A stretch of DNA of 46,473 nucleotides, taken from sequence record OP142323.1. The stretch is one strand, 5' to 3'. The notes under the pieces were generated by a model. It saw only the letters and a list, made by a program, of their open reading frames with translations. It ran no database searches and was not told the DNA's origin. Shown here piece by piece: positions 10,658 to 27,605 of this stretch (its first letter is position 1; the number at the start of each line of letters is the position of its first letter). Both the position numbers and the translations under genes were made by a program. Source of the DNA: Staphylococcus phage Lacachita.

Positions 10658-13600
10658 ATGGCAAGTGTAAAGGAGTTATATGCCAAGATTAGTGCCACTG
10701 CTGAAGGTTTTAATAAGACAATGGATAGTATATCTAGCAAGACAAGACAGACAGCTAAGAGCATATCCAGTCAATCTAATATCATGAGCAAAAGCCTACA
10801 GGGTATCGGTAAAGCTGGGCGTAGCTTTGACAACATAGGAAACAAAATACAAGGCGTTTCTAAAAGTGTCGGTGGCGTTGGCGAGAAAATGACTAACTCT
10901 ATAACTAAGCCGGCAGGTGTAGCAGTTGGCGCAGTTGGTGGGCTTGTCGGTGCTTTAGGTTTCAAACGTCTTGTCGGAATGGATCAGGCAGAAGCTAAGT
11001 TAAAAGGTATCGGTCTTGCAGGGAAAGACGTTACAAAAATACAAAACCAAGTATCTAAGTCTATCGAAGGTAGTATGACAACTATGGCCGAAGGTACTGA
11101 CTTAGCAGCCGGTGCTTTAGGATCAGGTGTTAAAGAAGGAAAAGAATTAGAAAAATACATAAAAGCAGCAGGTAACGCTGCAGTAGGTGCTAATGTACCT
11201 GTAGCTGAAATGGGACAAATATTCAGTCGTGTTAAAGGTCAGGGTAAATTAGCCGGAACTGAATTAGAAATGATGGAAGAACGTTTACCGGGATTCACTT
11301 CTACAATGGCAAGAGAAATGGGCTTGTCTATGGAAGAATTTAGAGACAAAGTTTCAGCCGGAGAGGTTGGATACGATGAGTTCTTAAAAGGTGTTGAAGC
11401 TAGAGCGGGTAAATCGGCAGAAGCTCAATCTCAAACATTTATGGGTATGCTTACCAACACTAAAAACTATTTAGGAATGATTGGAGAAGCATTTCTACAA
11501 CCCGCATTTAAAGAGGCTAAAGTTGTATTAGCTGATCTCGTTAATACTTTAAATAGCGATTCCCTAAGAGAAAGCGCTGCAGAAGCAGGTAAAGTAGTAG
11601 CGCCAGCCTTTGCTTTCCTAGCTAAAGCAGTTACAGGAACAATTAAAGCATTCTTAAATCTACCCGGTCCAGTATTAGGCGCAATTGGTGCTTTAGGTGG
11701 TATATTAATTGCTATTGGTCCGGTTCTTACAGGTTTTGCTAAATTAGGTGGTATGATCGGCGGAATGTTCAAAACGTTCGGATCATTACTATCATTCGTG
11801 TCAGCATTAAACCCAGTAGGACTAATTATCATGGGTATTGTTGCGGCAGTCGCAGCATTAGGTACAGCTTTCTATATCGCTTATCAGAAATCAGAAACAT
11901 TTAGAAACTTCATCAATGGTATAGGCACTATGATAAGTGGTGCCATTGGTTGGATTAAACAATTTGGTCAAGCAATCGGTGCGCTTTTCTCAGGAAATAC
12001 TGGAGAGGGCGTTAACATATTAGAAAAGCTAGGTTTTAATCAAAGTCAAATATCAGCGATACAGGGTATGGTATCAAGTCTTAAAAGTATATTTACTGAA
12101 TTAGGACGAGTGTTAGCGATAACATTTAATGAGATGAAAGGCGCTTGGAATGGAGTAGCTAGTGCATTCACTGGATCAATTCCATTTATTAAAATGGCGT
12201 TCTCTAACATGGTAGCAATACTAGGTCCGATATTTATGGCTTTAGTGAATGTTGTTAAGACAGTGTTCACAACTATAATTTCTGTCATTCGTGGCGCTTT
12301 CCAAATGATACAGGGCGTTATACAAATATTTAGCGGTCTTGTACAGGGCGACTGGTCGTTAGTATGGCAAGGCGTAGTAAATATATTCAAAGGTTTCTTT
12401 GGTATATTAGTTGCCTTAGTTAAACAGCTTGTCATGACGCTATTCTATATAGTTAAAGGATTGGCTACTAGTTTAGGTAATGCCTTACGCATTGCTTTTG
12501 GCGTCGTCAAAAATATCATCGTCGGTATTTTCAACGGTATCAAGTGGGTAGTAGTTACAATATTTAAAAGCATGGTTAATGCTATCGTTGTCAGCGCACA
12601 AACATTGTGGTTGAGAATAACACAAATTTTTAATGCACTTAAATTTGCTATTACAGCTATATGGAATGGAATTAAATTTGTTTCTGTAGCAGTATGGAAT
12701 AGTATTAAGTTTTTAGTAGTTGGTTTCGTTCGAACTATGAAAAATTTAATAATGATGATACTTGGCGGACTGAAAGCCGGTATATTGGCAATTTGGAACG
12801 GAATCAAGTTTGTCACAATGTTTGTTTGGAATTTAATCAAGAATAGAGTTATAGCCAATGCTCGTATCATGAAGAATTTAGTCGTTGCCATATTTAGAAG
12901 TTTAAAAGCTATCGTTTCTGCTATATGGAACGGACTTAAAAACTTTGTCATCTTAGTATGGAACACATTAAAAAATAGAGTAATTGCAATTACTCGTATT
13001 TTGAAAAATATCGTAATTTCAGTAATACGAATAATGAAAAATATCGTTATTGCAACATTTAGAATAATGAAGAACATTGTTATTGCAGTGTGGAACGCAT
13101 TGAAAAATAGAGTTATCGCAGTTGCTCGTATCATGAAAAACATTGTTATTACAGTTATTCGAACATTGAAGAATGTTGTTATTAGCATATTTAGAGCATT
13201 GAAAAATGTAGCGATTGCTATTTGGAATGGAATTAAAAATAAAGTTATTTCTTTAGCTCGAACAATGAAGAACGTTGCTATATCAATAGTTCGCGCAATG
13301 AAAAACGCGATACTTGGAATTTGGAAAGCGCTCAAAAACGTAACAATTTCAATTTGGAACGCAATCAAAAATAAAGTAATCGGTTTAGCTCGCGGTTTGA
13401 AGAGCGCTGCACTTAGTGTTTTCCGTTCATTGAAGTCAGGTATTACTGGAATATGGAATGGTATAAAATCTGTTACATCTAAAGTATGGAACGGAATTAA
13501 AAATGTAGCTATCGGCGCAGCTAAAGGAATGAAAAGTAAAGTCTTAGGTTTATTTGGTTCCATGAAAAACGGAATCAAAAAACAAATTGATAACATCAAA

Positions 13601-15490
13601 GGATTTATGGATAAAATGGTTGGTGGCGTTAAGAAAGGACTTAACGGACTAATCAAAGGTGTTAACTGGGTAGCCGGCAAACTAGGTATGGACAAGCTAC
13701 CTGAAATAAAACTACATAGCGGTACTGTGGGTGGTGGACGTCTTGTAAGAAACGGAAAACTAAACACAGGCACAATGGCTACTGTAGGAGATAAAGGTCG
13801 AGGAAATGGACCGGGTGGCTTTAGAAATGAAATGATACGCTATCCTAACGGAAGAATGGCACTAACACCTAACAAAGATACAACAACATTCTTGCCTAAA
13901 GGTTCAAGCGTATATAGCGGCGCACAAACGCACTCATTATTAAGTAGTTTGCCTAAGTTTTCTACTGGTACTAATCCATTAGGCAACGGAAACAAAAAGC
14001 CTAAGAAAAAGAAAAAAGGCGACAACTTATTTGGCGACGCGTGGGACGCAACTAAAGCTGGTGCAGCTAAAGTCGTTGACGGTGGTAAAGCAGTTGTTAG
14101 CAAAACACTCGACGCTGCCGCAAAAGGTAAAGAGTGGTTAAGTGATAAAGTCGGAGATGTGCTTGACTGGATAGACAAACCAGAAAAACTATTGGATAAA
14201 GTTCTTGAAGGCTTTGGAGTTAACTTAGATGGTTTCGGAATAACTAAAGCTGCTGAATTACCTTACAACATGATGAAAGGTATGTTCGGTAAACTTAAAA
14301 AAGGTGCTATAGAGAAATTTAAAGAATGGTTTGAAGAAAGTAGTAGTGGCGACGGTGGATACATTGACCTTTCTAAAGGTATAAACTTTGGTTTCGCTAG
14401 AACAGCTGCAGAAGCAGCATCTCAGGGTTATCCATTCGCAAGACCTCACTATGGTTTGGATATAAATTATAAATACGACAAAGTATATTCAACGCTTTCT
14501 GGTATGGCAACAGGTAGTTCAGGTTGGAACGGTGGTTTCGGTCAAAACATGTGGATAAGAGCCAAAAACGGAGTAGAAGCCATATACGGACACCTTCACA
14601 AACTAGCCTTTCATGGTAAAAAACGTGTCAAACCGGGAACTTACTTAGGTATTTCCGGTGGGGATCCGGGACGTGACGGACAAAACGCCGGAAGTTCTAC
14701 AGGTCCACACTTACACTATGAAATGCGCTGGAATGGAGTTCCTAAAGATCCAACAAGCTGGTTGAAGAAAAACAATGGTGGCGGCAAAGTCGGTGGTAGT
14801 GGATCAGGAAACGCACGTAAGGCAATCAAGAAAGCACAAGCAATTTTAGGCGGTCGTTACAAATCATCTTATATTACTGAACAAATGATGAGAGTCGCCA
14901 AACGTGAATCCAACTTCCAAGCTGACGCAGTCAACGACTGGGACGTCAATGCTAGAGCTGGAACACCTTCTAAAGGTATGTTCCAAATGATTGAACCATC
15001 TTTTAAAGCATATGCTAAAAAAGGACATGGGAACATATTAAATCCAACTGACCAAGCTATATCAGCTATGCGCTACATTGTAGGTAAATGGGTTCCTATT
15101 ATGGGAAGTTGGAAAAGTGCGTTTAAACGTGCAGGAGATTATGCTTATGCTAATGGTGGTATTGTTAATTCGCCAGAGTTAGCATGGATTGCCGAAGGTG
15201 GTTTCAGTGAGTCTGTTATAAGTCATGACCCTAGAAAACGTATGAGAAGTAAAAGCATACATGATAAAACAGGCAAAATGCTCGGTGTTGATGATGATAC
15301 GCAAATGTTACGAGAAATCATTAATATTCTTGAAGCTGGCAACCACTTACAATCTGTTAATAATAACGCTGTTAATAGATTGTTAGATAAAAACGTCGAC
15401 ATCTATATGGATAAGAAAAAACTAACACAAGCGGTCAACAATCAGTCAGCGGACTTATTCAATTCCGGTATGTATAATCAGGGAGGTTAA
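10658..15490 (+). CDS. tail tape measure protein with C-terminal M23 peptidase and lytic transglycosylase (SLT) domains
   Basis: 1610 aa. The N-terminus has Gly/Ala-rich TM-like segments. The central region is about 30 copies of an 11-aa repeat. The M23 region carries 'HYGLDINY...GPHLHYEMR'. The SLT region carries 'RESNFQADAVNDWD...GMFQMIEPSF'. Confidence 0.85.
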   Translation: MASVKELYAKISATAEGFNKTMDSISSKTRQTAKSISSQSNIMSKSLQGIGKAGRSFDNIGNKIQGVSKSVGGVGEKMTNSITKPAGVAVGAVGGLVGALGFKRLVGMDQAEAKLKGIGLAGKDVTKIQNQVSKSIEGSMTTMAEGTDLAAGALGSGVKEGKELEKYIKAAGNAAVGANVPVAEMGQIFSRVKGQGKLAGTELEMMEERLPGFTSTMAREMGLSMEEFRDKVSAGEVGYDEFLKGVEARAGKSAEAQSQTFMGMLTNTKNYLGMIGEAFLQPAFKEAKVVLADLVNTLNSDSLRESAAEAGKVVAPAFAFLAKAVTGTIKAFLNLPGPVLGAIGALGGILIAIGPVLTGFAKLGGMIGGMFKTFGSLLSFVSALNPVGLIIMGIVAAVAALGTAFYIAYQKSETFRNFINGIGTMISGAIGWIKQFGQAIGALFSGNTGEGVNILEKLGFNQSQISAIQGMVSSLKSIFTELGRVLAITFNEMKGAWNGVASAFTGSIPFIKMAFSNMVAILGPIFMALVNVVKTVFTTIISVIRGAFQMIQGVIQIFSGLVQGDWSLVWQGVVNIFKGFFGILVALVKQLVMTLFYIVKGLATSLGNALRIAFGVVKNIIVGIFNGIKWVVVTIFKSMVNAIVVSAQTLWLRITQIFNALKFAITAIWNGIKFVSVAVWNSIKFLVVGFVRTMKNLIMMILGGLKAGILAIWNGIKFVTMFVWNLIKNRVIANARIMKNLVVAIFRSLKAIVSAIWNGLKNFVILVWNTLKNRVIAITRILKNIVISVIRIMKNIVIATFRIMKNIVIAVWNALKNRVIAVARIMKNIVITVIRTLKNVVISIFRALKNVAIAIWNGIKNKVISLARTMKNVAISIVRAMKNAILGIWKALKNVTISIWNAIKNKVIGLARGLKSAALSVFRSLKSGITGIWNGIKSVTSKVWNGIKNVAIGAAKGMKSKVLGLFGSMKNGIKKQIDNIKGFMDKMVGGVKKGLNGLIKGVNWVAGKLGMDKLPEIKLHSGTVGGGRLVRNGKLNTGTMATVGDKGRGNGPGGFRNEMIRYPNGRMALTPNKDTTTFLPKGSSVYSGAQTHSLLSSLPKFSTGTNPLGNGNKKPKKKKKGDNLFGDAWDATKAGAAKVVDGGKAVVSKTLDAAAKGKEWLSDKVGDVLDWIDKPEKLLDKVLEGFGVNLDGFGITKAAELPYNMMKGMFGKLKKGAIEKFKEWFEESSSGDGGYIDLSKGINFGFARTAAEAASQGYPFARPHYGLDINYKYDKVYSTLSGMATGSSGWNGGFGQNMWIRAKNGVEAIYGHLHKLAFHGKKRVKPGTYLGISGGDPGRDGQNAGSSTGPHLHYEMRWNGVPKDPTSWLKKNNGGGKVGGSGSGNARKAIKKAQAILGGRYKSSYITEQMMRVAKRESNFQADAVNDWDVNARAGTPSKGMFQMIEPSFKAYAKKGHGNILNPTDQAISAMRYIVGKWVPIMGSWKSAFKRAGDYAYANGGIVNSPELAWIAEGGFSESVISHDPRKRMRSKSIHDKTGKMLGVDDDTQMLREIINILEAGNHLQSVNNNAVNRLLDKNVDIYMDKKKLTQAVNNQSADLFNSGMYNQGG
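12600..13560 (+). repeat. coding tandem repeats (33-nt / 11-aa period) inside the TMP gene
   Basis: Repeated units of the form 'AIWNGIKNKVIA' / 'RIMKNIVIAxF'. The periodicity leaves the reverse strand open as a 442-aa artefact ORF. Confidence 0.8.
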
Positions 15491-15493
15491 CAA

Positions 15494-16336
15494 ATGGAGA
15501 GTTGTAAGAAAAGCTGGGTAGAAGTAATGTTCAAAAATAAAACGTATAATCTAGCAAATATTGACGGTTTATACATACAAAACATATCAACTACACACCC
15601 AGTAGGAGAAAACGATCAAATAGAAATTAAGGGGGTTGACGGTGTTATTCCAGCGCCGTCAACATATAAACCCTTCGAACTAGAAATAGAACTCATGTAT
15701 AGAGGCGTAGACGCAAAAGACGTTGAGCTTTTAGTATTCAGACTTAATAACTTTTTAAGTGTAAGAGAGCCTTACTATATTAGACATTCGAACATGCCCG
15801 GACTTAAATATGCTGTATTGCCTAATCCTAAAATTGAAGATGAATATAAAACATTAAGAGATAGAACAATAAAAATAACTTTTAATTGTTATAAAGGATA
15901 TAGCGAAAGTTATGAAGCAACTAACAAGATGAATTTCATAAATGATGATTGGCAATTCCAAGAAGGTTTAAAAGCAGCAGACAAATTAAAGTATGTTCAT
16001 TATGATTGGGGTTATGAAATATATAATGGATCAAGCGACTACATAAACCCGTTTAACCAAAGTTTAACTATTAAATTGAATTTAGACGCCCCTAAAGGTT
16101 TTACATTACACAACAAGACAACAGGGGATAAGTTTGAATATTACGAGCCATTAAAAAGAAATGAAACGTTTGAGTTGAGAGACGTTTATCCTATAAAAAA
16201 CTATAGTGAGCATGTAGGACACTTAACTAATTTTGAATGGATTACGTTAGCGCCCGGATATAATGATATAGAAATATATGGACGCGACTTAGGATATACA
16301 AAGAGTGAATGGATATTTAACTTCACATTCAAGTAG
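15494..16336 (+). CDS. distal tail protein (Dit)
   Basis: 280 aa immediately after the TMP gene, which is the canonical Dit position. Confidence 0.55.
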   Translation: MESCKKSWVEVMFKNKTYNLANIDGLYIQNISTTHPVGENDQIEIKGVDGVIPAPSTYKPFELEIELMYRGVDAKDVELLVFRLNNFLSVREPYYIRHSNMPGLKYAVLPNPKIEDEYKTLRDRTIKITFNCYKGYSESYEATNKMNFINDDWQFQEGLKAADKLKYVHYDWGYEIYNGSSDYINPFNQSLTIKLNLDAPKGFTLHNKTTGDKFEYYEPLKRNETFELRDVYPIKNYSEHVGHLTNFEWITLAPGYNDIEIYGRDLGYTKSEWIFNFTFK

Positions 16337-16348
16337 GAGGTTAGTTAA

Positions 16349-18802
16349 TTGAAAGATTTAGTGTTATCAAATAGAAATTTCACATTTCAAGAGTTAATAG
16401 TCGACTATAACCTAGAGTCGCTATCTATTGAATACAGTTTAAACGATAACAGAGGGATAACTTTTGAAATTCCTAAAACAAAAAGAAATGCCTTTTTATA
16501 CGACAAGATATTACCTGATATGCTTTTAATTTGGGAAGATCAATATTACACAATTATCACATCAGACGAAGCAGCTTCAGGAAATCAACGTACAAAAACA
16601 GTAGAAGCTAAGCATATTTTTATGGAGTCACAATATATCTACATTGAAAGAGATTTATCAAAAGACAAAATAAACGAAGATGTTGAAGATATAGAAACAG
16701 ACGATAATGGCGTTGTCAAAGATAAAAAGAAAAAGAAACCTAACGAAGATGTGTCCGACAGCATAGCAGATAGTAATATAGATGTTGTAGCAGATAAGAT
16801 ATATAAATTCTTAATTAATAAAGGCATGGCCAAGTATCAAATATATGGGATATTAGGTAATGCAAAAGCCGAAAGTGGAATGAACCCTGCTGCTGAACAA
16901 GTTGAGGGAGATCCTGACAGAGGTGGTAAAGGTCTATTTCAATGGGACGATAGAAAGTACAACCTATATAAATTCGCTGAAAATAACAACACAACATGGC
17001 AAGATCCTGACGTTCAATTAAAATTCATGTGGAGTGAATTAAATTCTACAGAAGCGTATGCAATGAAGAAACTGGAAGCTACAAATAATACAAGAGAAGC
17101 AGCTTTAGCATTTCATAGATATTTCGAACGTAGTGCAGATGACACGCAAAAAGAAAAGCGACGTGTCACTTACGCTTTAGAGTATAGAGATATGTTCGAA
17201 GATAAAGACAACAGTCCTGATGAAGTAGCCAACAGTGATTGGTTGGATATTAGCAAAGGGATTAACTATGGTTTCGGACAGGGTGGCGCATATGAACAAG
17301 AAACTGGCGTCGCAAGACATGACGGTATTGATTTAAATTACGTATACGACCCCGTTTATTCTGTTATCAAAGGTTTAGTCAAAGTCGGTTGGGATCCTAG
17401 AGGATATGGAAACTATGTAATGATAAGTGACGGTGCTGGCTTAGATGTTATATACGGACATTTAAGCGAAGTACACGTCACAACCAATCAACAAGTTGTA
17501 CCCGGTACACCGTTAGGAATAAGTGGTAACACTGGTTTCAGTACAGGACCGCACTTACATTTTGAAATGAGAAAAAACGGTGTTGCGTTTGATCCTATGA
17601 ATTGGATTAGATCAAATAAAGGCGGTACTATTTCTGACGATGACATGACTAATACTGGCGCTACAGAGGACGCAAAAGACCTTTACAGTGTAGACTCATA
17701 CTTAGATTATGGCTTTAAAAACAATAAAGCTGGTTTCACTTATGAAATAGTTGGGGATTTCCCTGACTTTAAAGCTATAGATAAGATAGGGGATAAAAAT
17801 TTATTACAACACATTGTCGACGGTGCGAACGTTTTCGGTTATATCTATTATGCCGATAACAAGAACATCAAGATATACGATAAAGCTACATTCTATAAAT
17901 TCGAAAACTACCCTATTGTCTTTAAATATAATAGTGATGATTTGCAAGTTAAAACCAACATAACAGATTTAGAAACATTTATAAGAGGATATGGTGGCAA
18001 GAAGAATACGAGTGACACTAAAAACTACAATCCAATAAGAAATAAAGATTTAAAGTTAAAAGGTAACTTCAATAAAAAAGGAACATGGAACACAGAAGAA
18101 GTTGGATCATACTATGAAAGTGACTTCGTAGCTAAATACGGAAATGAAACACTACAATGGAATTTGAAAAAAGGTAAACAAGGCGGAACTGTTACTGTTT
18201 ACTTAGACGGAGAAAAAGTCAACAGCTTCAATCAATATAACGAAGAGGCTAGTACAGATAAAGTTATACTCAAACGTGGATTAGAAAAAGGAGATCATAA
18301 CATAAAAGTTGAATTTTCCGGCGCTTCTAATGGTGTTGACTATGAAGAAAAGAAACCCGTCATGTATGTTCAAACTAATAAAAGCGATGTATTTAATTTA
18401 ACTGCAGTTTTAAGTGGTAAAGAGGTTTACAACTTCTACGCAGAATACAAATCGCCGCTATACGACACATATACACCAAGAGAAGCACCTACAGTCTATG
18501 AAGATAGTGTGAAAAGCGAAGATGAATTGAAAAAGATAATAAAAGAAAAAATAAAGGAAGAGCCAACAGTTGAAGTATCAACGAACTATCTAAGTTATGA
18601 TAAAATAGAAGCTAACAGTAAGGTTAGGCTAGTGCATAAGGAAATGGGCTTTAATACCGATTTAGAAGTCGTGGAACTTAAAAAAGGACACCCTCGCGTA
18701 AACAAACCGGTAGAGGTTACATTCACAAATAACAGAACGGATATATTAAAATATCAACGTGCATTAAACCAAGCTGTTAGAAAAATGGAATTAGGAGGGT
18801 AA
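16349..18802 (+). CDS. tail-associated lysin (Tal) with phage tail lysozyme and M23 peptidase domains
   Basis: 817 aa with a TTG start 9 nt after AGGAGG. Lysozyme-like motif 'GILGNAKAESGMNPAAEQ...GLFQWDDRKY'. M23 motif 'HDGIDLNYVYD...GPHLHFEMRKNG', paralogous to the TMP M23 module. Confidence 0.7.
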   Translation: MKDLVLSNRNFTFQELIVDYNLESLSIEYSLNDNRGITFEIPKTKRNAFLYDKILPDMLLIWEDQYYTIITSDEAASGNQRTKTVEAKHIFMESQYIYIERDLSKDKINEDVEDIETDDNGVVKDKKKKKPNEDVSDSIADSNIDVVADKIYKFLINKGMAKYQIYGILGNAKAESGMNPAAEQVEGDPDRGGKGLFQWDDRKYNLYKFAENNNTTWQDPDVQLKFMWSELNSTEAYAMKKLEATNNTREAALAFHRYFERSADDTQKEKRRVTYALEYRDMFEDKDNSPDEVANSDWLDISKGINYGFGQGGAYEQETGVARHDGIDLNYVYDPVYSVIKGLVKVGWDPRGYGNYVMISDGAGLDVIYGHLSEVHVTTNQQVVPGTPLGISGNTGFSTGPHLHFEMRKNGVAFDPMNWIRSNKGGTISDDDMTNTGATEDAKDLYSVDSYLDYGFKNNKAGFTYEIVGDFPDFKAIDKIGDKNLLQHIVDGANVFGYIYYADNKNIKIYDKATFYKFENYPIVFKYNSDDLQVKTNITDLETFIRGYGGKKNTSDTKNYNPIRNKDLKLKGNFNKKGTWNTEEVGSYYESDFVAKYGNETLQWNLKKGKQGGTVTVYLDGEKVNSFNQYNEEASTDKVILKRGLEKGDHNIKVEFSGASNGVDYEEKKPVMYVQTNKSDVFNLTAVLSGKEVYNFYAEYKSPLYDTYTPREAPTVYEDSVKSEDELKKIIKEKIKEEPTVEVSTNYLSYDKIEANSKVRLVHKEMGFNTDLEVVELKKGHPRVNKPVEVTFTNNRTDILKYQRALNQAVRKMELGG

Positions 18803-18804
18803 CA

Positions 18805-21426
18805 ATGCAACTATTCACTATGCCCGTTGAATTGGGGCAAGAATTTAGAAAGGTAACCATTATTAATTTTAGAGATATTGTGTTCGAAATTAATAAAGGT
18901 AAGGTCGCGTTAAACGATCATAAAAACAAAGACAAAGTGGCACATAAAAGTAAACAAATTTCTCACTTTGACGAAGATTTAGAAACAATTTTAATCAATT
19001 TCAAAAAACGATTAGAGTCTCACATCATAGGTGCAAATGGCGACGGTATAGCAGAGCTTACTGATAGCCGAGTATCTAGGGACGGAAAAAGATTTAATAT
19101 TTTCAATAACCGTATTGATTACGAATTCCAGCAAACGGAAAAGTTATTCGAACAAAAGTATAAAGAAGTCTATGGTTTGGCTACTCGTCTAAGAAATGTA
19201 AATGACTTTGGTGCTGATCCAACAGGAGAAAAAGATAGTACAGAAGCCTTTGAAAAAGCGTTCGAAAACGGTGGCTATCATGTACATATGACTGAAGGTA
19301 CTTATAAAGTAAGAGGTATTAAGTTACCTAGTAACTCAATTTTAAGTGGGGAAGGCAAAGGCGTTACAACTATTAAAATGAATGATGACGCCCCTCAAGA
19401 AAATATTGTCATTACAAATAGAGATGTAGACGGAACAGCTAAAAACATCACTGTTAAAGACTTTAGTATCAATGGTAATAAGTTCAGACAAGAAGGCACA
19501 TTAAAAGCTGCTGGCGGCTCACGTTCAAGTAACTTACGCTATGCAGGTGTTACTAATGGATATATTTATAACATCGAAAGTTATGACGCACTATTACATG
19601 GTATAGACGTTACATACGCGTCTGATGATTACTTCTATGAAGGAGATAACGTACGTGTTGAGGAGCAATTAGAAAGTAACTTCATTCATATCGACAACTG
19701 CGAAACGTACGGTTTCGGAGACGACGGTATTACAACACACCACTCTAAATTCTTAAATATCACAAACAACTATTCACACCACCCTACAGGTGGAGGTAAT
19801 AATAACGGTATCGAAATAGATGACGGTTCAAGATATGTGATGTTAAGTGGTAATACAACAAAACAAAACTTTGGTGGACTTGAAATCAAAGCGCATGGTA
19901 CAGCTACAGCGCCAAGTGGCGTGTTTGTTAACAACCATTTATCTATTGAAGATACAAGAAGTTATAACGTTAGACACATAGGACATCACAGAGCCGCAAC
20001 AGATGTTAAGAGTAAATCAGCTCATGACGTTGTGCTTAATAACATTACATCTATTTATCCATACGCAAACAATACATATGAAAATGTTACGCCTAGAGCG
20101 TTAGTTATTAGTGCTTATGACGGTGTCGTATGTAACAACGTAACATGCATAGGCGACGGACGTTTCCAAGCAGGCCAACCAGCAATAGCAGTTCAATTTA
20201 TGAGCCAAAACATTGTCATTAGTAACGTGAACATCACAGGCTTCAAAAACGCTATGGCAGACATGAAAGTATTCGGTGGCAATAACGGTGGTAATAAAAT
20301 CAAATTTGCTAACGTTAACATTCACGACTCATCTGTGAATATTGGTATTGCAGGTGGTGCAGGTGTCGAAGGCTTTGGTATTTATAACGCTAACTTAACT
20401 GGATCCGGTAAAGGTAACGGAATAGAACTATACAACCACTACGCAGAAATTGTAGGTGTTGACGCAGTTAACTATGAATACGCAGCAGACATCGCCGGCA
20501 ACAAATACGAAGTAGTGCCAACATATATGAATGGTGGCGCAAGTATAGCTTCAACAGGTAGTGGTGCAATTTCTGAAAGAAGTGCCGTTTTAGCTTCTAG
20601 TAACGGAACATTCGCATACGACAAAAACTCATTTGTCATTGCGTCTAATATGGGATCAGAGGCTTACGGATCACGTTCAGGTGTTATTAATTCATCTAAT
20701 TCAAGAACTAAAAAAGATGGTTTCGCACAAACAATAATGAACTCAAGAAGTGTCGAGTCATTAGGTAATTATCATTTCCAAATGGGTTATGGCGAAGATG
20801 AAAAACCTAAAGCCTCAAACACTAAATTTGATGTATCTGCATTTAGCGGTAATGTAAGAACAGCAGGATATTTAAAATCAGGCCAAGACATCGGGGATAT
20901 TGGCGAGTATTTTGAAAGCAAAACTGGAGAGAAAATCGAAAACGGTTATATTGTAACCTTAGAAGGTCGCTACATTAGAAAAGCTGGTCCAGATGATGAG
21001 CCAGTAGGTATCGTTTCAGGTACAGCCGCATTAGTTATGGGGGATCAATTATTCCACCATAAATCTAAATATAAAAAAGACGAATTCGGTGTTGTTATAA
21101 AATCTGTTCAAATGGTTGAAAATGTAGATGATGAAGGAAACATACACCGCGAACTTGTAGAGTTACCAGTCGTTAATGAAGATTACGACAATCAAAACGA
21201 AGAAGATTACATTCCTAGATCACAACGAGATGAATGGTGCGTTGTTGGTATCAATGGTCAAATTTATACAAGAATAGATGAAACTGTTGAAAACGGCGAC
21301 AAAATAACTGCCATGAGAGGTGTAGGAACAAAAGACAATGCTAATGGCTATTATTACGTCGAAGAAATCACTACACCATACGACGCAGAAAAAGGTTACG
21401 GAGTAGCATTAGTATTCGTTAAATAG
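18805..21426 (+). CDS. tail fibre / pre-neck appendage-like protein with pectate-lyase-fold (right-handed beta-helix) domain; depolymerase candidate
   Basis: 873 aa. 'NVNDFGADPTGEKDSTEAFEKAFENGG' is typical of the Pectate_lyase_3 N-terminus and is followed by repetitive beta-helix-like segments. Confidence 0.55.
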   Translation: MQLFTMPVELGQEFRKVTIINFRDIVFEINKGKVALNDHKNKDKVAHKSKQISHFDEDLETILINFKKRLESHIIGANGDGIAELTDSRVSRDGKRFNIFNNRIDYEFQQTEKLFEQKYKEVYGLATRLRNVNDFGADPTGEKDSTEAFEKAFENGGYHVHMTEGTYKVRGIKLPSNSILSGEGKGVTTIKMNDDAPQENIVITNRDVDGTAKNITVKDFSINGNKFRQEGTLKAAGGSRSSNLRYAGVTNGYIYNIESYDALLHGIDVTYASDDYFYEGDNVRVEEQLESNFIHIDNCETYGFGDDGITTHHSKFLNITNNYSHHPTGGGNNNGIEIDDGSRYVMLSGNTTKQNFGGLEIKAHGTATAPSGVFVNNHLSIEDTRSYNVRHIGHHRAATDVKSKSAHDVVLNNITSIYPYANNTYENVTPRALVISAYDGVVCNNVTCIGDGRFQAGQPAIAVQFMSQNIVISNVNITGFKNAMADMKVFGGNNGGNKIKFANVNIHDSSVNIGIAGGAGVEGFGIYNANLTGSGKGNGIELYNHYAEIVGVDAVNYEYAADIAGNKYEVVPTYMNGGASIASTGSGAISERSAVLASSNGTFAYDKNSFVIASNMGSEAYGSRSGVINSSNSRTKKDGFAQTIMNSRSVESLGNYHFQMGYGEDEKPKASNTKFDVSAFSGNVRTAGYLKSGQDIGDIGEYFESKTGEKIENGYIVTLEGRYIRKAGPDDEPVGIVSGTAALVMGDQLFHHKSKYKKDEFGVVIKSVQMVENVDDEGNIHRELVELPVVNEDYDNQNEEDYIPRSQRDEWCVVGINGQIYTRIDETVENGDKITAMRGVGTKDNANGYYYVEEITTPYDAEKGYGVALVFVK

Positions 21427-24915: not shown

Positions 24916-25185
24916 ATGAAACCTGATGTAGGTACAATAACTAGGGTTGTATTATTTATTTTAGCTTGGGTTAACCAAATACTAGCTAATTATAATTTAT
25001 CCCCTATAGAAGCAAGCGAAGAAAATATCAGTGACATTATCACTGGTGCGATTTCTGTTTGGGTATTATGGAAAAACAACAACTTTACACATGCTGCAAA
25101 AGAAGGACAACAAAAAATACACGAGGTCAAATCCGGAAATAACAAACATACAGGTTCGCCCGTTATTGATGAGGAGGATTTATAA
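24916..25185 (+). CDS. holin (two-TM class II-like)
   Basis: 89 aa with two TM segments and a charged C-terminus. Its stop overlaps the endolysin start (TAATG). Confidence 0.55.
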   Translation: MKPDVGTITRVVLFILAWVNQILANYNLSPIEASEENISDIITGAISVWVLWKNNNFTHAAKEGQQKIHEVKSGNNKHTGSPVIDEEDL

Positions 25186-25272: not shown

Positions 25273-26277
25273 TAATTGATAGTCCATATAAAACCTATTG
25301 AATTGCTGGGAACCCCTAACGTAAAGTCGAGGGCAATCAGCAGCGAAGCCTTTGTGGTAATAGCAAAGGAACGTTCAACGACTAAGTGCATACAATCGTA
25401 TGACAGCGGTAGGTATTCTTGATACAAATAAATGACATGCTATAATCAAGACAACAATTACGGAAAGGTGTTTTGATTATGGTTAATAGTGTTGAAACTG
25501 GAAAAAGATATAACAATATAAAAGTTTTAGAGTATTCTCATACAAACAAACACAACAAGAGAAAATACAAATGTAAATGTATGGTATGTGGCAAAATTTT
25601 TATAACGTTAGGCACTACAGTTAAAACAGGTAGGCTAAAAAGTTGTGGTTGTTTATCTAATAAAAAAGCCCAAGAAAGAATGAAAAAGCATGGAATGCAT
25701 GGCACACAAATATATAATCGTTGGAAAGGCATGAAATCAAGATGTAGGAGTAAATCATATCATGCTTATCATAGATATAACGGTAAAGGTATAACTGTTT
25801 GTGAACGGTGGTTAAATGATTTTATGAATTTTTACAATGATATGAATGATACATTCTTTGAAGGTGCTGAATTAGATAGAATAGACAATAGCAAAGGTTA
25901 TTATCCTGAAAATTGTAGGTGGGTTACGCACAAGCAAAACTGCAACAACAGAGATAAATATAAAAATAACACCGGTTATACAGGAATACATTTTGGAAAG
26001 AAAAATAAAACTTATCAAGTTAATATGTGTCACAAAAGAAAAAGTATTTATATCGGAAGTTACAAAAATATAAAAGATGCAGTAAATGCAAGAAAATCAT
26101 TTATATTAAAATTCAACAAAGATAATGGGACAAATTACAAATATGAAGAGTATCAAGAATAATGATATAGTCTAGTCTTATATGAAAGTATAAGGTTTCT
26201 AAAACAGAAACTATTTAACGTTACACAAAATTATAGAGAAATTTATAATCAGAGAGGCGTTAAATATAATATTAACG
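25273..26277 (+). mobile_element. group I intron interrupting the endolysin gene (carries an HNH homing endonuclease ORF)
   Basis: P1 pairing: exon GGAU (25269-72) with intron GUCC (25282-85), including the U.G wobble at the splice site. P10 pairing: intron AUUGAU (25275-80) with 3' exon AUCAAU (26278-83). The intron ends in G26277. Length 1005 nt, which preserves frame. Confidence 0.7.
25479..26162 (+). CDS. intron-encoded HNH-family homing endonuclease
   Basis: 227 aa from ATG 25479 after GAAAGGTG. Basic and Cys-rich, with an HNH_3-like 'LDRIDNSKGYYPENCRWVTHKQN' segment. It lies wholly inside the intron. Confidence 0.7.
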   Translation: MVNSVETGKRYNNIKVLEYSHTNKHNKRKYKCKCMVCGKIFITLGTTVKTGRLKSCGCLSNKKAQERMKKHGMHGTQIYNRWKGMKSRCRSKSYHAYHRYNGKGITVCERWLNDFMNFYNDMNDTFFEGAELDRIDNSKGYYPENCRWVTHKQNCNNRDKYKNNTGYTGIHFGKKNKTYQVNMCHKRKSIYIGSYKNIKDAVNARKSFILKFNKDNGTNYKYEEYQE

Positions 26278-27605
26278 ATCAATGCTTTGATACAGCTAAT
26301 CAGTATTGGATGTACTTATTCGGACATATGTTAAAAGGCATAGGCGCTGCAGATATTCCTACATGGAACAATTTTGAAGGAGAAGCGAAAGTTTATAAAA
26401 ACACAGTAGACTTTTTAGCTAAACGTGGAGATTTAGTTATATTCAACAGAAATTACGGTGGCGGTTATGGACACGTCGGCATCGTTATAAAAGCGACACT
26501 AGATTACATAGTGGTCATAGAACAAAATTGGCTTGGCGGTGCTTATTGGACACCACCAGAAGTAACTACACGTCGCACACATGGCTATGATTTTCCTATG
26601 TTTTTTATACGCCCCTACTTTGCAAAAGAAACGAAAACAAACGCTGTTAAAAGTAAAATGACACCTAAGAAAAAACCTAAAATGAACAAAGGTAAGAAAA
26701 TATTACTTGTAGCCGGACATGGTAAAGGTGCTTATTCAAACGATCCGGGTGCAGTAGCTAATGGATATAATGAGCGCGATTTCAACAGAAAAGAAGTTAT
26801 ACCTAGAGTTAAGAAATATCTTGAGAGTGTAGGTAACACTGTCGTTCTATATGGTGGTAAGAAAATGAACCAAGATTTATATCAAGACACGTTATACGGT
26901 CAAAGGGTAGGAAATTATAAAGATTACGGTTTATATTGGGTTAAAAACAATGTTAAACCTGACGCGATTGTAGAATTTCATCTCGACGCTGCAAGCCCTA
27001 AGGCTAGTGGCGGTCATGTTATAGTAAGTGATAAATTCCCTGCCGATGATATAGACAAAGCATTGTCTAGTACATTAGATAAAACAGTAGGAAAAATAAG
27101 AGGTGTTACACCTAGAAATGATCTATTAAATGCAAATGTTACTGGATCATTAAACTTAAACTACAGATTGATAGAACTAGGTTTTATAACATCTAAAAAA
27201 GATATGAACTACATCACGAAAAATATTGATGACTTTACTAAAAGAATTGCAGAGGCAATCAACGGTAGACAGATCGAAGCGCCAAAGAGCAAACCTTCTA
27301 AAGCTAAAAATACATGGAATTGGTCGGGTACTTTCTACCCTAATGCGCCTAAAGAAGGTATTAGAGTTAGAAGATCGCCCGGCTTAAATGGTGCTATTGT
27401 CGAAAGTGGTTCGTGGTTATACCGAAAAACAGATTGGGTTAAATTTGATAGAGTTATCAAAAAGGATGGATATTGGTTTATTAGGTTTAAATATCAAGCG
27501 CCGGGATCTAGCAATAAACACTTCTACTGTGCAGTATGCAAAATTACCGATGAGCAACAAAAAATAAAAAACGAGAAATATTGGGGAACCATAGAGTGGA
27601 AATGA
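26278..27605 (+). CDS. endolysin exon 2 (rest of CHAP, Amidase_3, SH3b)
   Basis: The spliced junction reads '..[14 protein letters not shown]..', restoring the CHAP catalytic Cys context. The CHAP His sits in 'GYGHVGIV'. Amidase_3 is marked by '[18 protein letters not shown]'. The SH3b-like domain is the C-terminal about 90 aa. Confidence 0.75.

Follow-up and report, generated by a model that had tools for sequence, protein, structure and literature searches.

Peptidoglycan-cleaving domains are found in the tail proteins of several phages. Virion-associated lysins in tape measure proteins (TMPs) and tail tips are the subject of a review whose reference list includes Pb2 of phage T5, the TMP of TM4 and the TMP of phiIPLA35 (PMC6116005). 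According to the title of Rodriguez-Rubio et al. 2012, a paper cited in PMC6116005 and PMC6950010, the phiIPLA35 TMP has an active muramidase domain. The TMP of phage QT1 contains lysozyme-like and M23 domains, this protein has been detected in virions by mass spectrometry with uniform coverage (PMC6950010). Some enterococcal phages have a tail-tip hub protein (Tal) of a type named DA3, which combines PF06605 with the phage tail lysozyme domain PF18013 and an M23 domain (Alrafaie & Stafford 2023, PMC10194240). In enterococcal phages such Tals co-occur with TMP-borne lytic transglycosylases (PMC10194240). Domains of both kinds, M23 with lysozyme on TMPs and PF18013 with M23 on Tals, have already been described. 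Here we consider the TMP and Tal encoded at positions 10658-18802 of Staphylococcus phage Lacachita (sequence record OP142323.1); the whole stretch of 46,473 nucleotides that was analysed is referred to as the window.

Region 10658-18802 is a tail-tip module made up of TMP, the distal tail protein Dit and Tal. Four predicted peptidoglycan-hydrolase domains are present on two of these virion proteins. The interpretation that we favour, with a probability of about 0.78, is that the module carries two pairs of hydrolases, one on TMP and one on Tal, that their M23 domains come from a family exchanged among staphylococcal phages, and that the enzyme cassette of Tal is a rarer add-on. The features concerned are as follows.

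10658..15490, plus strand: TMP, 1610 amino acids (Pfam TMP_3, E 5.5e-15; NCBIfam tape_meas_nterm; PHROG 167 and 4070, E about 1e-210)
14363..14791, plus strand: M23 metallopeptidase domain of TMP, residues 1236-1378 (Pfam PF01551, fold match, motifs)
14804..15139, plus strand: SLT/lysozyme-like (GH23-type) domain of TMP, residues 1383-1494 (Pfam SLT, conserved E1417-S1418)
15494..16336, plus strand: Dit, 280 amino acids (Pfam Sipho_tail, E 7.7e-15; PHROG 33 Dit, E 2e-33)
16349..18802, plus strand: Tal, tail-tip hub protein, 817 amino acids, with a TTG start (Pfam Prophage_tailD1 and Prophage_tail)
16784..17200, plus strand: lysozyme-like domain of Tal (Phage_lysozyme2, PF18013), residues 146-284 (Pfam, similarity to gp13)
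17222..17623, plus strand: M23 metallopeptidase domain of Tal, residues 292-425 (Pfam PF01551, LytM fold match, motifs)
17681..18799, plus strand: C-terminal scaffold of Tal, residues 445-817, which continues the gp27-like hub past the cassette (MAFFT alignment, Pfam Prophage_tail)

The gene for TMP is longer than any other and is immediately followed by that for Dit. Towards its C-terminus Peptidase_M23 matches residues 1263-1365 (nucleotides 14444-14752) with an E-value of 3e-16 and 59.8 bits, against a cut-off of 28.7. The zinc-binding and catalytic residues are all present (H1264-x3-D1268, H1312 and H1351-L-H1353), and the H55, H103, H142 and H144 columns are invariant in an alignment of 34 TMP homologues (A3). 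The AlphaFold2 (AF2) model of this domain has a pLDDT of about 90, Foldseek matches it to LytM with TM-scores of 0.77-0.79 (2b0p, 0.79) and to lysostaphin (4qpb) with a TM-score of 0.75. Immediately before the HxH motif the TMP domain carries an 8-residue insertion, with GGDPGRDGQNAG where others have GNTG (residues 1334-1345, nucleotides 14657-14692). This insertion is shared with the S. chromogenes phage PT94 and is absent from most other TMP and Tal M23 domains; it could have an effect on the substrate groove.

The second predicted enzyme of TMP is an SLT domain. In the whole protein PF01464 matches residues 1409-1474 (nucleotides 14882-15079) with an E-value of 6.8e-4 and 19.6 bits, where the gathering cut-off is 21.3. 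When the C-terminal fragment of 244 amino acids is searched alone the score rises to 23.3 bits, and the same match is found in 13 of 14 orthologous TMP C-termini, the best with an E-value of 3.3e-8. The catalytic-type motif E1417-S1418 and the motif G1440-M-F-Q1443 are present. The E-S, G, Q and F positions are invariant in alignments of 14 and of 34 TMP C-termini (A1 and A3). The AF2 model of the region is helical, with a pLDDT of 72-89. The SLT assignment appears firmer at the level of the family than from the single protein.

Tal is a gp27-like siphophage hub, as indicated by the gene order TMP-Dit-Tal, the presence of both scaffold domains and the hub fold. The scaffold domains are Prophage_tailD1 (PF18994) at residues 5-89 (E 8e-11) and Prophage_tail (PF06605) at residues 444-803 (E 1.3e-15). 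Foldseek matches the AF2 model to the monocin tip protein FtbL (9j1k_L, E 2e-18) and to the Listeria prophage protein gp18 (3gs9, E 1.5e-9). The mean pLDDT of the model is 79.5, and low-confidence tethers are present at residues 126-144, 285-290 and 430-443. The TTG codon at 16349 is preceded by AGGAGG 7 nucleotides upstream. The 817 amino acid form is supported by a cluster of the same length that is 99% identical (P0121) and by the TPWB-09 protein, which has 819 amino acids. In the record of phage Southeast (OQ623150, 17383-17554) the Tal coding sequence begins at an ATG equivalent to window position 16520, it is 57 codons short and the dropped codons hold most of Prophage_tailD1.

Between the two scaffold domains Tal carries a further pair of predicted enzymes. 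Phage_lysozyme2 matches residues 148-283 (nucleotides 16790-17197) with an E-value of 1.3e-34 and 119.8 bits (cut-off 28.2), and the phi29 gp13 structure 3csr is matched by phmmer at E 2.3e-8. Residue E175 of Tal aligns with E45 of gp13, which is reported to be catalytic (Xiang et al. 2008). Peptidase_M23 matches residues 323-416 (nucleotides 17315-17596) with an E-value of 1e-24 and 86.9 bits (cut-off 28.7). The zinc-binding and catalytic residues are again all present (H324-x3-D328, H371 and H402-L-H404). Foldseek matches this domain to LytM (2b13) with a TM-score of 0.84 and an rmsd of 1.9, phmmer also finds lysostaphin and LytM.

LytM domains are often degenerate, and the fold and sequence matches include EnvC, SpoIIQ and DipM. 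One of the two M23 domains might be a degenerate, non-catalytic LytM-type module like those of EnvC, NlpD or SpoIIQ, which would serve in binding or as an activator and leave three enzymes only; the insertion before HxH in the TMP domain, common to PT94, could be taken as a sign of this. We consider it highly improbable, since every zinc ligand and the catalytic histidine are kept in both domains, at positions that are invariant in the 34 TMP homologues. A degenerate LytM domain was rejected on account of the conserved motifs in both M23 domains. The first-pass annotation of this DNA, made without database searches, had placed an M23 peptidase at about 14380-14770, a lytic transglycosylase at about 14830-15130, a phage-tail-lysozyme-like domain at about 16800-17200 and a second M23 at about 17230-17640. 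The family matches, marginal for the transglycosylase in the whole protein, bear out all four and agree with these positions.

The architecture of Tal varies among its relatives. A search with the full-length protein returned some 33 clusters, 37-99% identical to it, that have D1, lysozyme2, M23 and Prophage_tail in the same order; one of these is a protein from an S. pettenkoferi prophage that UniRef names "phage tail tip lysozyme". Other homologues differ in size and content. Those of 521-530 amino acids have no enzyme, those of 641 and 714 amino acids have M23 only, those of 800-858 amino acids have lysozyme and M23, and one of 1032 amino acids (P0152) has lysozyme2 and two M23 domains. All of these variants align on both flanks in MAFFT, at window Tal residues of about 1-105 and 445-817. 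Because the homologues of 521-530 amino acids, which lack residues of about 105-445, align on both sides of the gap, the enzymes of Tal represent an inserted cassette that occupies a single site in the hub. It sits between domain D1 and the remainder of the gp27-like scaffold.

The M23 domains of TMP and Tal are clearly homologous, as the first-pass annotation had stated. Pairwise BLASTP gives 66 identities in 162 positions (41%) with an E-value of 2e-36, far beyond chance, and the two copies are 45% identical over the 132 alignment columns that were kept. The strings that had been quoted for the two proteins were located at TMP residues 1236-1247 (IDLSKGINFGFA) and Tal residues 299-310 (LDISKGINYGFG). 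A preceding linker of about 30 amino acids had also been described as common to both. The shared segment exists, its status as a linker does not hold: the catalytic domain of lysostaphin (4qp5, residues 10-138 of 140) aligns to Tal residues 297-422 and the AF2 models include the segment, so it forms the N-terminal portion of an M23 fold of the lysostaphin type. The Pfam model begins downstream of it. The segment D-[LI]-S-K-G-I-N-[FY]-G-F, which is common to both modules, lies within the modelled M23 fold.

This homology had been taken as evidence of an intragenomic duplication, in which the Tal M23 and its upstream segment were copied from that of TMP, either in this genome or in its immediate ancestry. 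Besides the E-value of the pairwise match, the D-[LI]-S-K-G-I-N-[FY]-G-F segment speaks for such an event, as it is absent from several other TMP lineages. Relatives of the M23 domain were sought by tblastn against 50,697 phage records and the loci were fetched. Trees were built from the modules of 16 fetched phage loci by neighbour joining (NJ) with 500 bootstraps, support being taken from counts of bipartitions. Enlarging the tree with Tal homologues, with TMPs of Macrococcus and with 24 TMPs of prophages in GTDB genomes left the result unchanged. A homologue search with the 165 amino acid Tal M23 module returned nearly only short bacterial M23 proteins and no TMPs, these were used as outgroups only.

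The two M23 domains of the window are sisters in 0 of 500 bootstraps. The TMP copy falls within a clade of TMPs from other genera (PT94, SpP, IME1354 and QT1) that excludes the Tal copy, with 96% support, and its nearest TMPs by identity are PT94 (72-76%) and then SpP, IME1354 and QT1. The Tal copy groups with the Tal M23 of TPWB-09 (97%). In tblastn its best match is the TPWB-09 Tal (72% identity), followed at about 53% by TMP M23s from S. aureus phages of the phi13, PVL and tp310 type. Its identity to foreign TMP M23s reaches 52-53% (phi13 and PVL108) and 52% (a Macrococcus TMP), against 45% to the TMP copy of its own genome; an unrelated bacterial LysM-M23 protein, at 46%, is about as similar as that copy. 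Among 44 TMP M23s the window's own ranks 13th by identity to the Tal copy (45%, where the best has 52%), and the Tal copy ranks 34th of 77 by identity to the TMP copy. No donor of the Tal copy was found among the 44 TMPs, the best being 52% identical. The identity within the genome (41-45%) is no higher than that between phages, since it lies below the 52-53% to foreign TMPs.

The same pattern is present in other genomes with M23 domains on both proteins. Five were available, namely the window, TPWB-09, the S. pettenkoferi prophage and two metagenomic phages. The identity between the two copies of one genome is 45, 41, 57, 30 and 34% in these five, and the genome's own TMP copy ranks 10th, 14th, 6th, 21st and 20th of 22; it is never the nearest. 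TPWB-09 is a divergent relative whose Tal and TMP M23s are 72% and 52-56% identical to those of the window. As it already has both copies, any duplication predates the split between the two phages. A nucleotide trace of recent duplication was sought in the codon-aligned modules of the window and no recent tract was found, the identity being 55.7% and the longest shared word 11 nucleotides. A recent duplication event is already largely refuted, and we regard a copy made within this genome or its immediate lineage as improbable.

The staphylococcal and macrococcal phage tail M23s group together, apart from the bacterial M23s, the other phage M23s and phi29 gp13, with 92% support in one tree and 78% in a second. 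This single clade makes an ancient TMP/Tal duplication somewhere in the family possible. The two M23s of the window are best read from their tree positions as old relatives in one family of staphylococcal phage tail M23s, with no duplication in this lineage.

What seems a direct instance of one M23 subtype occurring in both genes is seen in P0152, the Tal with two M23 domains. Its extra M23 (residues of about 230-448) shares 61% identity with the TMP M23 of the phage contig k141_44668 (L022, 1203-8150) and at most 35% identical to all other M23s sampled. The Tal of k141_44668 itself (P0150) has an M23 that is 78% identical to the second M23 of P0152. Judged by such similarities, exchange of M23 as a module between the TMP and Tal genes of different phages does occur.

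The two enzyme pairs differ in how common they are. In species-representative genomes, among staphylococcal prophage loci with this Tal family, TMP bears an M23 in 24 of 24 loci and only 1 of 31 carries the cassette on Tal. The TMP-borne M23 is usually accompanied by SLT. The TMP-borne M23 is the default state and the Tal cassette is the rarer add-on. The first-pass annotation had suggested that the redundancy makes for a strong wall-penetration apparatus, for instance against thick walls or biofilms, which is a conjecture. Two assemblies, of Micromonospora sp. NPDC050417 and Nocardioides sp. NPDC127503, contain apparently the same 41,200-bp contig (L027 and L035), which encodes a staphylococcal-type TMP(M23)-Dit-Tal; lengths, open reading frame coordinates and match statistics are identical in both, and the contigs are probably staphylococcal phage contamination.

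A wider reading, which we hold tentatively and think rather doubtful, is that the tail M23 is a mobile module that has moved repeatedly between TMP and a hot-spot at the D1/D2 junction of Tal, and that both virion copies have diverged to cut different bonds. The junction would then tolerate no cassette, M23 alone, lysozyme with M23, or lysozyme with two M23s. If this is true the two M23s would be complementary and not redundant, for example with one cutting Gly-Gly and the other Ser-containing or D-Ala-Gly bridges in the peptidoglycan of S. epidermidis.

The Tal cassette resembles a known protein in the order of its domains. Gp13 of the podophage phi29 (3CSQ/3CSR) has an N-terminal lysozyme-like domain of the PF18013 type, a linker and a C-terminal domain of the M23/LytM type. 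BLASTP between gp13 and the Tal cassette is collinear across both domains (26% identity, E 3e-12), Foldseek matches Tal to full-length gp13 (3csq) with an E-value of 4e-12 over about 300 columns. The gene that follows Tal resembles a second phi29 protein.

18805..21426, plus strand: phi29-gp12-like tailspike, 873 amino acids (Pfam Peptidase_G2, E 3.9e-58; Pect-lyase, E 1e-12; PHROG 4775 pre-neck appendage)

Over 776 amino acids this protein shares 39% identity with gp12, the pre-neck appendage tailspike of phi29 (E 1e-151). It has a beta-helix of the pectate-lyase type and, at its C-terminus, an autoproteolytic chaperone (Peptidase_G2). In phi29 itself gene 12 lies next to gene 13. The lysozyme and M23 of Tal might have been taken as one block with the gp12-like gene from a phi29-like podophage, the likeness to the TMP M23 being secondary, and the collinearity with gp13 and the adjacent gp12-like gene are what such a capture would leave. 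The M23 half of the cassette, however, is about 24% identical to gp13 as against 45-53% to staphylococcal TMP M23s, and the Tals with M23 only (P0147-P0149) fall in the same M23 clade with 83% support. Phages with related Tals also lack the neighbour: the S. pettenkoferi prophage has the same cassette with a Peptidase_S74 fibre and no gp12-like gene, k141_44668 has an M14 peptidase protein and no gp12-like gene, and a locus whose Tal has M23 only (L024) is also without one. Outside the group, the lysozyme2 domain is most closely related to tail lysins from jumbo phages of staphylococci (46%) and not to proteins of podophages. Joint capture of gp12 and gp13 is doubtful because of the affinity of the M23 to TMP M23s, the M23-only Tals in the same clade and the cassette phages without a gp12-like gene, we judge it unlikely.

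An en-bloc capture of gp12 and gp13 from a podophage was rejected as the main explanation on these three grounds. In the fetched stretches for the tail lysins with the closest lysozyme2 domains (Machias, SPbeta-like and Stau2) and for phi29 gp13, tblastn found no M23 at E <= 1e-5. A donor of the whole cassette was sought and none was found.

Under the favoured reading, that of two hydrolase pairs with M23s from an exchanged staphylococcal family, a mechanism of wall entry can be proposed, for which we infer enzymatic activity, bond specificity, order of action and copy number. Each pair would combine a cutter of glycan strands with an M23 endopeptidase acting on cross-bridges or stem peptides, which is the same logic as in gp13. 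The first pair would be the gp13-like cassette of Tal, probably displayed outside the tail tip because it is inserted through flexible linkers. The second pair, M23 and SLT at the C-terminal end of TMP, would lie inside the tail tip and be expelled first. Glycerol-phosphate teichoic acid, the type found in S. epidermidis, is also the substrate of phi29 gp12. The gp12-like tailspike, as a part of the same wall-penetration module, would begin by clearing teichoic acid. The externally tethered lysozyme and M23 of Tal would then break both the glycan strands and the peptide bridges in the outer part of the wall, after which Tal would open. The TMP C-terminus would emerge through it, where its M23 and SLT could cut the inner layers and extend the hole. 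The hydrophobic segments of TMP (residues 335-409 and 515-599) would finally reach the membrane.

Several points weigh against this picture. The SLT match is marginal in the whole-protein Pfam scan (19.6 as against 21.3 bits). A profile of the SLT region against PDB sequences gave only weak matches to c-type lysozymes and SLTs (E of about 0.03-0.07), and there is no SLT among the top 50 Foldseek matches of the TMP C-terminal model, all of which are to the M23 half. Independent confirmation of the SLT fold was not obtained, because the Foldseek list is saturated by M23 matches and the PDB sequence matches are weak. The M23 trees are NJ trees on about 132 columns and not maximum likelihood trees, and their deep nodes are weak (25-43%), so transfer may have gone from TMP to Tal or from Tal to TMP, in one or several events. 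The order in which the two enzyme pairs would act is proposed by analogy only. Tail lysins are not mentioned in the papers on CUB-EPI_14, Lacachita and Southeast.

On nucleotide identity the window belongs to the siphophages of a known S. epidermidis group that includes Southeast, Sazerac and CUB-EPI_14. For region 10658-18802 the identity is 99.1% with Staphylococcus phage Southeast (OQ623150) and 95-96% with Sazerac, CUB-EPI_14 and S-CoN_Ph27. These four are siphophages of S. epidermidis or coagulase-negative staphylococci. In the S-CoN_Ph27 record (OR354850.1), which is otherwise 95% identical, the annotation breaks TMP into four coding sequences and covers the Tal region with several 'hypothetical proteins', one of them an M23 fragment of 150 amino acids. 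This split annotation suggests assembly frameshift errors, not true gene splitting.

The central part of TMP (residues of about 640-1000; for example nucleotides 12959-13248) contains tandem repeats of 33 nucleotides, or 11 residues, within units of 66 and 132 nucleotides. These repeats have periodic W/F/I-x-N/K motifs such as IWNGIKN and IMKNIVI. An antisense open reading frame at 12445-13773 (442 amino acids) overlaps the repeat region, it may be a mere by-product of the repeats.

Two lysis genes are found downstream of the tail module.

24916-25185: holin
26310-27605: endolysin with CHAP, Amidase_3 and SH3b_P2 domains

The endolysin contributes two further peptidoglycan-cleaving domains, bringing the number encoded by the genome overall to six. 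Between holin and endolysin is an open reading frame of 229 amino acids (25473-26162) without a family match.

Phages of this group are being considered for treating S. epidermidis and for controlling biofilms; the analysis gives their tail-tip enzymes correct labels and mends one database annotation, that of the Southeast Tal. The four predicted catalytic domains, compact and apparently intact, are candidate starting points for engineering enzybiotics that target coagulase-negative staphylococci. How tail proteins become mosaics of domains is illustrated by the different forms of Tal and by the M23 subtypes that TMP and Tal share. The biology is of an ordinary kind and changes little.

The arrangement can be compared with four kinds of known system. 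The TMPs of staphylococcal phages phiIPLA35, QT1/2638A, phi13, PVL, StB20 and 6ec have a C-terminal M23 followed by a lysozyme-like/SLT domain, the order also predicted for the window TMP, and their M23s are 38-76% identical to that of the window TMP. The window TMP is no different in kind, it is closest to the TMPs of Sextaecvirus phages of S. chromogenes and S. saprophyticus (PT94, 72-76%). The enterococcal DA3 Tals resemble the window Tal in having a PF06605 scaffold, a gp13-like lysozyme and an M23 at the Tal position. The DA3 M23 is described as C-terminal, whereas the cassette of the window is internal and splits the scaffold into residues 1-105 and 445-817; hosts and sequences also differ.

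Phi29 and the window are alike in having gp13-type enzymes at the distal tail tip and an adjoining gene for a gp12-type tailspike. Gp13 differs in that it is a free-standing podophage protein of 365 amino acids, whereas the cassette of the window lies inside a siphophage Tal, after D1. The M23 of gp13 is only about 24% identical to the Tal M23, which belongs to the clade of the staphylococcal TMP type. The Tal of the lactococcal phages Tuc2009 and TP901-1 has a C-terminal M23. This protein, Pb2 of T5 and the TM4 TMP share with the window the principle that hydrolase domains on the tail tip or TMP of a siphophage aid entry. In Tuc2009/TP901-1, T5 and TM4 there is one enzymatic module on one protein, whereas in the window TMP and Tal each carry a pair consisting of a predicted glycosidase-type domain and an M23 domain.

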